Program-made: the position numbers and the translations under genes
The notes under the pieces: generated by a model
Databases searched by the model: none
What the model saw: only the letters and a program-made list of their open reading frames with translations
Told to the model about the DNA's origin: nothing
Origin: Gammaproteobacteria bacterium
GTDB taxonomy: Bacteria; Pseudomonadota; Gammaproteobacteria; Xanthomonadales; Wenzhouxiangellaceae
Reading direction: 5' to 3'
NCBI GenBank assembly: GCA_003560975.1
Contig: PWJA01000017.1
Coordinates: forward strand, 1 to 58,324
DNA length: 58,324 bases
Shown: positions 21,432 through 25,377 of the stretch, one piece after another
How the letters are laid out: each line of letters begins with the position of its first letter
How positions within the stretch are numbered: position 1 is the stretch's first letter

Positions 21432-21992
21432 TCAGGCGCCCTTCCACTTGATGTTGCAGCCGATCGATGGTCGCTGGTCCGCGCCGACCGGCTCGCCGGA
21501 GAGCAGGGCGTCGAGAGCGGCGCGGATGTCGCGACCGCTGACCGGGATGCCGTTGCCGGGGCGGGAGTCGTCGAGCTGGCCGCGATAGACCAGGCGCCGG
21601 TCGCCGTCGAAGACGTAGAAGTCCGGCGTGCAGGCCGCGCCGAAGGCGCGCGCGGTGTTCTGCGACTCGTCGTACAGGTAGGGAAAGGCAAACGCCATCC
21701 GCTCGGCCAGTTCGCGCATGCGTTCGGGCCGGTCCTGCGGAAAACCGGTCACGTCATTGCTGCTGATGGCGACCATGCCCACGTCGGGTCCGGCGTAGTC
21801 GCGGCCGAGGCGGGCCAGTTCGTCGAGCAGGTGCTTGACGAAGGGACAGTGGTTGCAGATGAACATCACCAGCGTGGCCCGGGTGCCGGCCACGTCGTGA
21901 TAGGTCATGGTCTGCCCGCTGACCGTGTCCGGCAGCGTGAAATCCGGGGCCGGGGTGCCCAGCGGCAGCATGGTGGAGGCGGTCTTGGCCAT
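21432..21992 (-). CDS. Thioredoxin/AhpC-TSA family protein
   Basis: FICNHCPFV, ACTPDFYVFD, YRGQLDDSRP, SIGCNIKWK. Confidence 0.92.
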   Translation of the reverse strand: MAKTASTMLPLGTPAPDFTLPDTVSGQTMTYHDVAGTRATLVMFICNHCPFVKHLLDELARLGRDYAGPDVGMVAISSNDVTGFPQDRPERMRELAERMAFAFPYLYDESQNTARAFGAACTPDFYVFDGDRRLVYRGQLDDSRPGNGIPVSGRDIRAALDALLSGEPVGADQRPSIGCNIKWKGA

Positions 21993-22051
21993 GGTGTCCT
22001 GCGATGCCTGTTGATTCCTGCGCCATTATGGCAAAGCATCCGTCGATGCGC

Positions 22052-22109
22052 GCAGGCCGCGGTCTCAGTCCTTCGGCTCGACCGGGGCTTTCCCGGCGGC
22101 CCGGACCAG
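22052..22109 (+). repeat. 58-bp direct repeat, left copy (duplicated 3' end of the MscS gene)
   Basis: gcaggccgcggtctcagtccttcggctcgaccggggctttcccggcggcccggaccag is identical to 23698-23755. Confidence 0.97.
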
Positions 22110-22476
22110 AATCTGGCCCGTTTCCATAGCGCAGGCGAGAGCGCCCGCACGGGCGCGGGTTCATCCAAGGGCTTCTTGCCTCTGGCAAACCGCCCCAGGA
22201 CGATCCAAATCGGCGCCAGACTATACCTTGGCGCGGCCGTGGATACTGCTTGAGATCGGGGAATGGGGCGCTAAAACTTCCGGCTCTTCGCGGTTTTGTG
22301 TGGTCGACCGCTTCAGGCCTTGCATCGTGCATTCCCCAAAACCGCCATTTCCACAGGCATTCGCGCCAGCCGATCAAGTCAATTTGTCCGCCCCGGCTCG
22401 ATTGTCAAGCCGCGAGACGCCGGTCCCCGATCAATGAAACGACCAAACGACGAACCGACGAACCGACTTCTCATGC

Positions 22477-22505
22477 TTGCATAAACAATGCATTTGCATT
22501 ACCAT
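22477..22505 (+). promoter_or_regulatory. Sigma70 promoter of prlF-yhaV with overlapping palindromic operator
   Basis: TTGCAT (22477-82), 17-bp spacer, TACCAT (22500-05); palindrome AATGCA-TT-TGCATT at 22487-22500. Confidence 0.7.
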
Positions 22506-22538
22506 TGCAGCCGTGCCCGAGGAACTCCCGAGACAACC

Positions 22539-22862
22539 ATGACATCCGTACTCGAAGCCGAATCCCGCCTGACCGACCGTTACCAGACCACCGTGCCCGC
22601 GTCGGTGCGCAAGGCGCTTTCGCTGAAAAAGCGCGACAGGCTGCGTTTTGTCGTGCAGCCGGACGGACAGGTCGTGCTGACGCGCGTGGTCGAGGGCGAT
22701 TCGGACGACCCCGTGCTCGGCCGATTCCTTGACTTTCTGGCCGCCGACTTGGCGAAGCATCCGGAGCGGCTGCAAGCCCTTGATGCGGAGCTCGCGGAGC
22801 GCATGGATGAGCTGGTGGGCGATATGGACGTCGATCTGGATGCCTCGCTGGCCGACGAATGA
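22539..22862 (+). CDS. prlF: Type II TA antitoxin, PrlF (SohA) family
   Basis: ESRLTDRYQTTVPASVRKAL (AbrB fold), DPVLGRFLDFLAADL, VDLDASL; ATGA overlap with the toxin. Confidence 0.93.
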   Translation: MTSVLEAESRLTDRYQTTVPASVRKALSLKKRDRLRFVVQPDGQVVLTRVVEGDSDDPVLGRFLDFLAADLAKHPERLQALDAELAERMDELVGDMDVDLDASLADE

Positions 22863-23350
22863 GTCCGGACGCCTCGGCGCCGCTGGTCGTCAACGGCTGG
22901 ACGCTGTTCGCGCACCCGCTCTTCCTCGACCAGCTCGATGCGCTGGTTCGCAAGGTCGAATCACTACGCCGCAAGGCCCCAGCCACATACAGGCAGAACA
23001 ATGCGACCAAACGCCTGGCGGCGATCCGGAAATTGATCTTCGAGGCGATTCCGCAAGACCCGTCACGCGCTGAATTCCGACAGGGAAAGACGCTGGGCGA
23101 ACAACACAAGCACTGGTTCCGGGCAAAGTTCTTTCAGCAGTACCGATTGTTTTTCCGGTACCACGCATCCAGCAAGGTCATCGTCTATGTGTGGGTCAAT
23201 GACACAAAAACGTTGCGGGCCTACGAGAGCAAGCGCGATGCTTACCGGGTTTTCCGTCAAATGCTCGACAGCGGCAATCCGCCGGATGACTGGGAGACGC
23301 TGCTTGCCGAGGCCAAGCGAACGAAAAAGCGTTTTCGGCGCGGCTCCTGA
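22859..23350 (+). CDS. yhaV: Type II TA toxin, YhaV family endoribonuclease
   Basis: VNGWTLFAHPLFLDQ, FRQGKTLG..HKHWFRAKFFQQYRLFFRY, WVND..TLRAY..DAY.VF..ML..G.PPDDW. Confidence 0.95.
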   Translation: MSPDASAPLVVNGWTLFAHPLFLDQLDALVRKVESLRRKAPATYRQNNATKRLAAIRKLIFEAIPQDPSRAEFRQGKTLGEQHKHWFRAKFFQQYRLFFRYHASSKVIVYVWVNDTKTLRAYESKRDAYRVFRQMLDSGNPPDDWETLLAEAKRTKKRFRRGS

Positions 23351-23388
23351 AAGGCTGCAAGCACCAGCGGTAGCGTACAAGCCAGGAC

Positions 23389-23674
23389 ATATATGGACGC
23401 CTCCCCCCAGTCAAGCGGTTTTTGACGGTTTTTACTTTCATCAGTCCGATTGCTCCTGTCCCTCCAAAAAAGGGCTTTCGTCGTTGGCTTGTTGCGATGA
23501 ATCAGGGGTCTGCTGACATACATTCGGGCTCTTGATGGGGGCTTTGGCTTTCCTTTAGCCCCGGCCCACCATGAGTTTCTAGATGACCCCGAGACCTAAA
23601 CAGGCAATCGGCTTTTCACCATGTCCCGGACCAGGTTCGCTCGGGGTCGGTTCAACCTGTTGTTTCATCGACTT
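23389..23674 (-). mobile_element. Remnant of an IS1111-type (IS110 family) element: right non-coding end only, no recombinase gene
   Basis: Minus strand ends CTTGACTGGGGGGAGGCGTCCATATAT (outward -35 plus sub-terminal IR ATGGACGCCTCC at 23393-23404). Upstream GATGAAACAACAGGTTGAACCG...GAACCTG...GGGCC...GCCCGAATGTATG resembles IS1111 3' non-coding regions as I recall them. The segment is AT-richer than its flanks. Confidence 0.72.
23505..23670 (-). ncRNA. Putative bridge RNA/seekRNA
   Basis: Two consecutive stem/internal-loop/hairpin units (9-bp stem 23585-93 with 23640-48; GGGGCT/AGCCCC stem). Loop sequences match the element's flank and its end. Transcript boundaries are approximate. Confidence 0.6.
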
Positions 23675-23707
23675 TCGAAGACGTAGAGGTCCGGCGTGCA
23701 GGCCGCG
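23675..23707 (+). repeat. 33-bp copy of an internal segment of the thioredoxin-family gene
   Basis: tcgaagacgtagaggtccggcgtgcaggccgcg matches 21607-21639 at 32/33 positions. Confidence 0.93.
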
Positions 23708-23755
23708 GTCTCAGTCCTTCGGCTCGACCGGGGCTTTCCCGGCGGCCCGGACCAG
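23698..23755 (+). repeat. 58-bp direct repeat, right copy (includes the MscS stop codon)
   Basis: Identical to 22052-22109. Confidence 0.97.
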
Positions 23756-24568
23756 TTCCACCGGCATGGGCTTGGTGACTTCACCGGTGTAGATCGTGCG
23801 ATGCGGGAAGGGGATCTCGATGCCGGCCTCGTCGAACGCCTGCTTGATTTCCGACGAGATCGAGTTGCGCAGGGTCAGGAAATTCTCCCTGCGCGCCCAG
23901 ACCGAGAACTGGATGTCCAGGGACGAGTCCCCGAAGCCGGTGAAAATGAACAGCGGTGCCGGTTCGTCGAGGCAGTGCACGTTGGCCTCGGCGACCGTCA
24001 TCAGGACCTCGCGCACCCGATCGAGGTTTTCCTTGTAGGCGACCCCGAGCATCAGGTCGAAGCGCCGGATCGGGAAGCGGCTCAGGGTGGTCACTTCGCT
24101 CTTGATCAGGGTCTCGTTGGGGATGCGGACGTAGAGGTTGTCCATGGTCCTCAGTTTCACCGACAGGGCGTCGATCGACAGCACCTCGCCGGTGGTGGCT
24201 CCGACCTTGATGATGTCGCCGATCTCGAAGCTGCGCTCGCTGATCAGAAACAGGCCGCTGATCAGGTTGGAGGCGGTGGTCTGGGAAGCAAAGCCGATGG
24301 CCACGGTCAGCACCCCGGCGGCCCCCATCAGGACCGCCAGACTGAAGCCCAGTTCGCGCATGGCCGAGGCCGCGAACAGGGCGAGGATGCCGTAGAACAC
24401 GGCGCGGCGGATCAGCTGCAGCACTTGCGGCGTGAGCCGCTGGCGCAGGGCGCGCTGGCTCAGCCGACTGGCCAGAGAGGCCAGGAACAGGCCGAGCACG
24501 ATCAGGATGGCGGCCCGCACCAGCGGCAGCGCCGCGCCCCAGGAGATCTGTTCCAGCCACTGGCCCAT
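23711..24568 (-). CDS. Small-conductance mechanosensitive channel, MscS family
   Basis: AIGFASQTTASNLISG, FEIGDIIKVG, IPNETL, GIEIPFPHR. ATG 24568 overlaps the upstream stop. Confidence 0.93.
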   Translation of the reverse strand: MGQWLEQISWGAALPLVRAAILIVLGLFLASLASRLSQRALRQRLTPQVLQLIRRAVFYGILALFAASAMRELGFSLAVLMGAAGVLTVAIGFASQTTASNLISGLFLISERSFEIGDIIKVGATTGEVLSIDALSVKLRTMDNLYVRIPNETLIKSEVTTLSRFPIRRFDLMLGVAYKENLDRVREVLMTVAEANVHCLDEPAPLFIFTGFGDSSLDIQFSVWARRENFLTLRNSISSEIKQAFDEAGIEIPFPHRTIYTGEVTKPMPVELVRAAGKAPVEPKD

Positions 24569-25377
24569 CAGGCGCTCCCGAACAGCAGGCTGAAGGCCCG
24601 CACCAGCCCCGAGCGGCCGGGGTTCTGGCGCGGCTTGCTCAGCAGGCTCAGTTTCCGGTTCGGCTCGGGCGGGTTGGGGTCGATGCGCACCGCCGCCAGG
24701 TCCGACTGATCCTCCCGGGTCAGGGTCACGCGCTGTGTCCACAGCATGCCGTCTTCGCTCCCGTACAGCGCCAGCATGGGAACCGGCAGGCTGATCTTTT
24801 CCAGCGGCAGTGGGGTGGCGGCCTTGTTGTGGATGTGCAGCGGCGTGATCGCCCGATGCGGTCGGTGTGGAATCTCATCGGGGTGGTGACGGGCGTGGGT
24901 CCGCCCGGCGTAGCAGATTTCGCCTTCACGGGTCGACGGCCCGAACCAGGTATCGGACAGGCGGGTAACCGGGATCTCGCGCAGCAGCGTGGCCGGTTCG
25001 CCCACGTCGATTCGGAGCCAGATCGGGGTCGACAGGTACAGGGTGACGGCCTGGCCGCTGAGCAGAAATACCGGCTGGCGCGGGCGGATGACCACGTTGC
25101 GATCGGCCAGCAGGGGCGTCAGCGTCAGGTGCCCGGACGTCCCGTTGAGAACGTGGCGTTCCTCGAACTCCGCCGGCAGGCTGCGCCGGGCCCGGATCCT
25201 CGCATTTTTGGCAACGGCCTCTTCGGCGATGGGTTCGGCGTGGATCCGCCACTCGTCCGGGCCATGGCCAAGGCGCAGGCGCAATGTGCCCAGCGTCACG
25301 TCCAGTCCGTGGCCGACGGGGACCCGGCGCGGGGTCCACCAGGGTTCGGCCTGGCGCTTGGAGGATGCGGCGGTCAT
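24568..25377 (-). CDS. Conserved hypothetical protein coupled to MscS (DUF432-like)
   Basis: 269 aa with plausible composition (LSDTWFGPSTREGEICYA). It is translationally coupled between LysR and MscS. The family call is tentative. Confidence 0.65.
   Translation of the reverse strand: MTAASSKRQAEPWWTPRRVPVGHGLDVTLGTLRLRLGHGPDEWRIHAEPIAEEAVAKNARIRARRSLPAEFEERHVLNGTSGHLTLTPLLADRNVVIRPRQPVFLLSGQAVTLYLSTPIWLRIDVGEPATLLREIPVTRLSDTWFGPSTREGEICYAGRTHARHHPDEIPHRPHRAITPLHIHNKAATPLPLEKISLPVPMLALYGSEDGMLWTQRVTLTREDQSDLAAVRIDPNPPEPNRKLSLLSKPRQNPGRSGLVRAFSLLFGSA

Follow-up and report, generated by a model that had tools for sequence, protein, structure and literature searches.

A likely relic of an IS1111-group insertion sequence that keeps its right end and a predicted guide RNA

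INTRODUCTION

When a guide RNA of a mobile element lies in a genome without the recombinase that it would serve, it is either a leftover of that element or a part that could act from a distance. This question is raised by a contig of a Wenzhouxiangellaceae bacterium (PWJA01000017.1, assembly GCA_003560975.1; the whole 58,324-nt stretch analyzed is called the window), in which an RNA-bearing piece sits between yhaV (plus strand) and mscS (minus strand). The piece had previously been described from its letters alone (the sequence-only reading) as an IS1111-type right end with a two-loop guide RNA at 23382-23674. Here, we compared it with its relatives and ask what it is, which site it would recognize, and how it came to be alone.

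RESULTS AND DISCUSSION

Identity of the element

The minus strand of window 23388-23682 is almost certainly the right non-coding end of an insertion sequence of the IS1111 group (IS110 family), judging from sequence comparison. An intact 1,429-bp IS1111-group element (L079/L083) carries a 92%-identical right non-coding end, and the closest relatives (L079, L083, L074, and L075) shared 92% identity over 302 nt, at window 23382-23682. The L079 protein comprises 347 amino acids with DEDD_Tnp_IS110 and Transposase_20 domains. Its stop codon ends at nt 1134 and the window homology begins one base later, at nt 1135, so that the recombinase was lost nearly exactly up to the RNA, as the sequence-only reading had proposed. 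The 295 bases retained are the right-hand part of the parent element. No such gene adjoins the RNA in the window, again in agreement with that reading, and the 92%-identical intact parents bore out its assignment to an IS1111-type right end with a two-loop guide RNA. The locus it had marked was correct, but the boundary at 23674 was not, because the homology extends slightly further, to 23682.

IS1111 elements carry an inverted repeat 3 nt inside the right end. In the window, this subterminal repeat (23393-23404) was present, followed by 3 nt and the TG core. The left end, with its repeat 7 nt inside, was absent upstream in the window, was not found in the genome, and was present in L079, L083, L032, and L040. 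The DEDD_Tnp_IS110 plus Transposase_20 gene was absent from the window and present in the 92%-identical parent L079. By these features, the piece reads as a fragment of an IS1111-group member and not as a complete member.

A metagenome pattern scan yielded 15 loci with relatives of the window RNA. As had been expected of full-length relatives, a gene with both domains lay directly upstream of the RNA; a transposase match stood there in 10 of the 15 scan loci and was missing in 5, which represent three distinct events. The best plasmid matches to this unnamed clade were 45 to 47% identical (ISSba8, 45%), and a search of plasmid DNA gave no match. An exact copy of the right end was also present in a Wenzhouxiangella sp. 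record (L025). The sequencing runs holding window DNA came mainly from soda lakes, salt lakes, and sediment, and 20 of 24 runs, among those listed, contained at least half of the words of 22400-24400. The GC content of the segment was 52%, versus 65% for the genome.

Ends, core, and target site

The right-end features are as follows.

23382-23387, minus strand: right target-site arm, reading TCCTGG in the orientation of the element and belonging to the host DNA beyond its end; 5/6 positions agree with the left target guide, and a similar arm is found at most right ends of the clade
23388-23389, minus strand: core dinucleotide TG (CA on the plus strand); TG follows the right end in 31/33 junctions, and an empty/filled pair exists (L028/L017)
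23390-23404, minus strand: right end, consisting of the subterminal inverted repeat (23393-23404) and a 3-nt extension (23390-23392); identical to L079, with an inverted copy 7 nt inside the left end of the parents
23409-23414, minus strand: outward -35 hexamer TTGACT, computed on L079; TTGACT-17-TATGAT would form only in the circle of the intact parent

In the parents, the inverted repeats lie 7 nt inside the left end and 3 nt inside the right end. The left junction of L079 reads CATGCC-TG-ATGAG-ATGGACGCC and its right junction reads GGCGTCCAT-ATA-TG-TCCCGG; the element occupies a perfect CATGCC-TG-TCCCGG site. The putative TTGACT-17-TATGAT promoter was computed by joining the L079 ends in a predicted circle. 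A scan of the linear window between 23300 and 24000 gave no promoter-like and no terminator-like site.

A single filled site, such as the window flank CCAGGACAT (23382-23390), fits either an AT or a TG core, and thus the empty sites decide for TG. The genome contained 17 TG-core sites and the loci, which overlap, contained 34, versus one and none with an AT core, and the AT core of the sequence-only reading was abandoned. The target predicted with that core had no occurrence in the genome or the loci. L028 contains an empty site, AAAATCGTGGG-TG-TCCTAG, and L017 contains a filled left junction with an identical left flank, in the TG register. The core is accordingly TG (CA at 23388-23389). Of the left end proposed earlier, ATGAG and ATGGACGCC were found in the parents, but the extra T and the start register were wrong, the parents reading TG-ATGAG-ATGGACGCC.

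Because the site counts, the L028/L017 pair, and 31 of 33 right ends set the TG register, the window RNA spells the predicted target TGCC-TG-TCCYGG. In its own genome, this site occurred once with C and once with T (contigs C259 and C26), and matching AT-flanked sites were present in C259, C26, and C46. No genome-wide enrichment of the target site was detected (58 found versus 78.6 expected).

Fold and covariation of the guide RNA

Three features make up the predicted RNA.

23495-23670, minus strand: predicted seek/bridge RNA, with an outer helix (23664-23670 with 23495-23501) and a possible crossing pairing (23677-23682 with 23510-23515); from family covariation
23585-23648, minus strand: target-binding unit, with left target guide 23622-23630 (TCCGGGA-CA) and right target guide 23601-23608 (ATTGCC-TG); from guide-flank covariation
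23517-23578, minus strand: donor-binding unit, with left donor guide 23571-23578 and right donor guide 23517-23524; from the match to the element ends

The motifs picked out earlier were all in place, namely, CCGGGACAT at 23621-23629, AAACTCAT at 23571-23578, AATGTAT at 23518-23524, and the flank CCAGGACAT at 23382-23390. The first unit folded with a z score of -4.0 (0/200 shuffles as good) and the second with -2.6 (4/200), and the folding energy of the whole 319 nt was ordinary (z, -0.68). In the single-sequence minimum-energy fold, the two target guides paired with each other, and open loops appeared only in the family consensus. RNAalifold on 15 aligned relatives gave both units with open loops and 29 pairs, 9 of them with a compensatory change. 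When the outer helix was added (42 pairs), 96.7% of cells paired, a value reached by 0/500 shuffles, in a control that is inflated by the relatedness of the sequences; slid controls reached 33 to 46%. The two-unit fold of stems and internal loops suggested by the sequence-only reading was thus borne out by covariation. Model R1 scored the window RNA at 190 bits, the sequence being part of the model by construction, and Rfam had no family match in the window.

The 8/9 match between loop and flank was reached by 4% of shuffled RNAs. It is weak alone, and therefore the comparative guide-flank test carries the claim. Both target guides tracked their flanks in the relatives. Variants of the right target guide (TGCC, TGTG, TGGG, and TGGA) followed the left flank, with 31/32 positions matched across the 8 elements whose left end is present, against a permutation mean of 22.3 (P = 0.0012). 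When each of the four distinct guides was represented by a single element, the kin not being independent, the same test gave 15/16 versus 11.25 (P = 0.083). Between the left target guide and the right flank, 69/90 positions matched, versus a mean of 59.9 (P = 0.0013); this test used 15 of 18 rows, with L042 and L046 (without a full right end) and L071 (without TG) left out. The right donor guide matched the right end, with one wobble in the window copy, and the left donor guide fit the left ends of the parents at 6/8 positions; in the L030/L040 subfamily, it matched 7 nt including the core. The RNA is predicted from these analyses to work like the seekRNA or bridge RNA of IS1111/IS110 elements.

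Missing recombinase and left end

With the L079 protein as the query, no cognate recombinase was found in the genome beyond a 31% partial match, an IS110-group gene on contig C67. Family searches of the assembly found only two distant IS110-group genes, both on C67. On this 2.8-kb contig, two different intact-looking IS110-group elements stand back to back, each with a long upstream non-coding region. They were rejected as partners because their long non-coding regions lie on the left-hand side and because they share no more than 31% identity with the L079 protein, over part of its length. No left end was found upstream in the window or in the genome, and the contig ends of the assembly gave no match to the element. 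The RNA was matched once in the assembly, and C259 contains no more than a 33-nt stub from the end of another variant. Two further candidates were set aside: a large cargo element whose left end lies far away (allowing 2 mismatches, none was found over the 34.6 kb upstream in the window) and a MITE (one end and one copy only).

The lack of a left end and of a cognate recombinase in the assembly makes a relic likely. The assembly consists of 286 contigs, and a multicopy insertion sequence could be missing from it. In run X4, the depth over the right end was about twofold (169 to 185 versus about 80), and copies may exist in the population or in neighbors.

Break point and local history

The following features describe the surroundings of the piece.

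23675-23682, minus strand: break point, an 8-nt imperfect overlap (6/8) between the first bases after the parent stop and a piece of a peroxiredoxin-like gene; from sequence comparison
23675-23707, no strand: 33-bp copy (32/33) of 21607-21639, inside the AhpC/TSA gene; from sequence comparison
22050-22109, no strand: 60-bp copy (59/60) of the mscS 3' end (23696-23755); from sequence comparison
22539-23350, plus strand: PrlF-YhaV toxin-antitoxin (TA) pair (Pfam PF15937 and PF11663), outside the element and inside the same insert
23711-24742, minus strand: mscS, same strand as the RNA, its stop about 30 nt upstream of the break; a possible source of read-through, with no terminator-like site in 23300-24000

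A 1.6-kb insert with the PrlF-YhaV module lies between mscS and the peroxiredoxin-like gene. The 33-bp and 60-bp copies point to a 503-bp duplication around it: the insert (1,565 bp, 22110-23674) is bracketed by two copies of a 503-bp stretch that runs from the mscS end to inside the AhpC/TSA gene. The upper copy lacks its middle, lost between two identical 10-mers, and the duplicated stretch corresponds to window 21607-22109 and 23675-23755. In the five relatives read, mscS directly adjoins the AhpC/TSA gene and the insert is missing.

Of 12 full copies of the clade, 10 had no direct repeat around them, the available flank on one side being below 200 bp for 4 of the 12; a 24-bp tandem site was present in L164, and L163 had a repeat of 89% similarity derived from the starts of two RAYT-like genes. 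Since full copies lack a long target duplication, the 503-bp duplication is not attributed to the insertion sequence. A TA module bounded by empty sites in relatives was also considered and rejected: of 10 loci with a yhaV match, only 2 had an exact site nearby. In another population (run X12), the contig with the TA genes agrees with the window only up to 23382, and 272 letters unlike it precede 23385 in the right-end contig, so that different DNA lies at this site.

Cut copies in the clade

Copies cut at the 5' side were common, with breaks at many places from -750 to +169 relative to the RNA start and many short stubs in the genus. The complete genome G383 alone had 11 matches, comprising 6 full and 5 cut copies. 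Four of 16 distinct breaks (window, L041, L071, and L133) fell at -2 to +6 of the RNA start (P = 0.003 for that fixed interval and 0.027 for any 9-nt interval); the 16 are those between -300 and +200, without the -750 break and the end stubs, and the searches favor whole RNAs. Other clusters of breaks lay near -255 and +72.

The window copy had 1 broken pair of 36 and 1 private change, and intact copies show 0 to 2. An A-to-G change at 23521, in the right donor guide, was absent from 14 relatives and is compatible with wobble pairing; contigs of runs X4 and X12 lack this change. The X12 contig over the window stretch breaks the stem G at 23595, which is invariant in 15/15 rows. The RNA-start-type copy of G461 had mutated donor guides, stem, and inverted repeat. 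No cognate recombinase match was found in G461 (a 6-contig genome) or G064, and G081 had only 32 to 38% fragments.

Among 17 hand-picked cut copies, 10 start 8 to 27 nt after an empty target-like site (background, 2.4%; the motif was widened after the sequences had been seen). Cuts after an empty site were noted at L043, L058, L073, L159, L160, L161, L165, L172, and L178. It is likely that something at empty target-like sites, either a Y1 nuclease or the recombinase, makes one-sided deletions. A reciprocal remnant, L006 (G011:C264), keeps the 3' part of the transposase and the right end and has lost the RNA (about nt 1124 to 1310). In L166 (G044:C22), a distant relative is represented by a cut RNA and right end inside an 818-bp tandem repeat, and an empty TGCC-TG-TCCC site lies close to the boundary of the tandem unit.

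Origin of the transposase-less copy

We give a probability of about two in three to the reading that the window copy is an immobile relic left by ordinary deletion. Based on published IS1111/IS110 work, the parent recombinase would bind the RNA and circularize the element at the TG cores, and the circle would insert into TGCC-TG-TCCYGG, which at this locus lies some 30 bp beyond the yhaV stop. A later deletion would have removed the left target arm, the left end, and the transposase, probably through the 6/8 microhomology at 23675-23682, either at the time of the local duplication by which the TA insert came to lie behind mscS or afterward. Without a left end, canonical excision is not possible, and without a circle junction the piece has no promoter of its own. 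This account is favored by the element identity, the ends, the TG core, the guide-flank covariation, and the absence of the gene and the left end from the assembly, all of which were established here. It is also favored by the frequency of 5'-cut copies and the scatter of their breaks, by the mutated G461 copy, and by the broken invariant stem base in X12. Against it, the window copy has barely decayed, so it is recent or constrained; the 286-contig assembly may miss a multicopy insertion sequence, the X4 depth is about twofold over the right end, and the covariation weakens to P = 0.083 with a single element for each guide. Against an ordinary deletion in particular, 4/16 breaks within -2 to +6 exceed the random expectation.

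That clustering at the RNA start suggests that the cut could instead have been made by the recombinase of the element itself, in a one-sided (right-donor-only or half-match) reaction near the RNA start, although the piece would still be a nonautonomous leftover. The left donor guide fits the RNA start at 6/8 positions, equal to the true left end, in 4/4 parents, and only 3 to 6 of about 1,420 positions per element score equally high. The 10 of 17 picked copies with an empty target-like site 8 to 27 nt before the break are consistent with such a cut. In addition, the available text of a preprint (10.64898/2026.08.14.744561) describes right-donor-only partial circles, recurrent internal endpoints, and reintegration. 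The guide fit and the published circles make this a rival worth weighing, but an unlikely one for this locus. The window copy has neither an empty site nor a left target arm before its break, and the arm is also missing in 4 other RNA-start copies. Moreover, the four breaks are spread over as much as 8 nt, at distances of 2 to 12 nt from the register of a guided crossover, and microhomology with the host gene explains the window break.

A more doubtful reading is a retained guide that acts in trans, in which mscS read-through RNA would serve a cognate recombinase encoded elsewhere, outside the assembled contigs, and steer insertion or rearrangement at TGCC-TG-TCCYGG in TA-rich islands. The nearly intact fold and guides, the position of mscS on the same strand without an intervening terminator-like site, the AT-flanked matching sites in C259, C26, and C46, and the extra depth over the right end in X4 all fit, and the IS1111 non-coding region acts in trans in the laboratory according to the available text of PMC11187229. 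However, the cognate recombinase was not found in the window's own genome (G000), G461, or G064, with only 32 to 38% fragments in G081, comparable copies decay, and the insert is missing from the locus in the relatives examined. An intact parent would also supply its own RNA, so that an extra guide to the same target should add little. The trans option of the sequence-only reading thus gained no positive support, as no cognate recombinase is in the assembly. Even less probable is a natural split bridge system, in which the clade would repeatedly shed modules of guide RNA and right end, recombinase-cut exactly at the 5' boundary of the RNA, that persist as read-through trans guides on repeated sites linked to RAYT-like Y1 genes and reshape TA islands.

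It is very improbable that the junction is an assembly artifact, a collapsed multicopy insertion sequence end joined to repeated sequence. The assembly is fragmented, two short repeats lie beside the junction, and none of the 32 contig pieces listed, beyond which there are 611 more, bridges 23674/23675 with 31 letters on each side. Yet half or more of the words of 22400-24400 were present in 20 of the 24 listed runs, and contigs of three runs (X2, X12, and X19) break at 21607-21636. The X12 contig with mscS starts at 23678, as predicted by the 33-bp duplicate, and the TA genes and the RNA lie together on one X2 contig (22080-23594). Other genomes also contain independent copies that lack the transposase. 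Overall, the window copy is likely a recent relic and not a new kind of system.

Repeated target beside RAYT-like genes

With its AT-rich flanks, the clade target TG[C/G]N-TG-TCCY recurs around RAYT-like Y1 genes, often in tandem (L026, L043, L160, L163 to L165, L072, and L076). A RAYT-like match occurred in 7/38 clade loci, four of the seven being from one genome (G383), versus 1/30 control IS1111 loci; the controls include two from the unpublished genomes G120 and G222, neither of which is the RAYT-like match. The density of target sites was 3.7 per 10 kb in clade loci versus 1.2 in controls. In the genome of the window, the Y1 family search found one gene (C76), of another type and without the sites. 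The 4-kb contig C259 (L039) of this genome contains a toxin-antitoxin-like gene cluster with target-like sites between the genes and ends in the second, 33-nt IS1111 right-end stub. The genes are presumably HigBA-like, a HipA-like fragment, and AbrB-PIN. Literature searches on the site motif, and on IS110 with REP-associated tyrosine and bridge, returned nothing relevant.

The relic itself matters little, as cut insertion sequence ends are common. Better leads are the parent clade and the target of this clade that recurs next to RAYT-like Y1 genes. The clade is useful as an IS1111 family with a TG core, fully read ends, and guide variants (TGCC, TGTG, TGGG, and TGGA) with matching sites, and the intact copies (L079, L083, L077, and those of G383) form a ready set for testing how programmable bridge RNAs are when the core is not CT. 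A cut made recurrently at the RNA start by the recombinase, together with an RNA serving in trans, would show that natural bridge systems can split the guide from the enzyme.

Comparison with known systems

In the mostly open-access literature covered, no paper on the clade or its target was found, and the available text of a genome-language-model preprint on bridge RNAs (10.64898/2026.10.21.760802) contains neither "orphan" nor "IS1111." As far as the accessible text describes them, IS1111 elements with a seekRNA (ISEc11 and its kin; Siddiquee et al. 2024, PMC11187229) have a 7-nt left extension of the inverted repeat. The clade shares this extension with them, as well as the long non-coding region downstream of the transposase, the subterminal inverted repeats, an outward -35 hexamer for a predicted junction promoter, and guides matching both target arms. 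It differs from them in its target, TG[C/G]N-TG-TCCY, and the window copy differs in lacking the gene and the left end. With the IS621 bridge RNA, as set out in the available part of Durrant et al. 2024 (PMC11208160), the clade RNA has in common a target-binding and a donor-binding unit, in each of which two guides end at a 2-nt core. Unlike in IS621, the RNA lies in the right end, the core is TG rather than CT, and the inverted repeats are long.

MITEPpu9/ssr9 of ISPpu9 (PMC12288879, available text) is likewise an RNA-bearing module without its transposase. However, MITEPpu9 has both ends and eight copies and forms circles, and ssr9 is not needed for transposition, whereas the window piece is a single copy with a single end, and the guide RNA is part of it. 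The partial IS110 circles described in the accessible text of Hu et al. (bioRxiv 10.64898/2026.08.14.744561) also keep the right terminus and have a recurrent internal endpoint, to which the clustered breaks of the clade may correspond (4/16 breaks; P = 0.003 to 0.027). Unlike reintegrated partial circles, the window piece has no left target arm and core before the internal endpoint. Both RNA-only modules and right-end-only partial circles have already been published.
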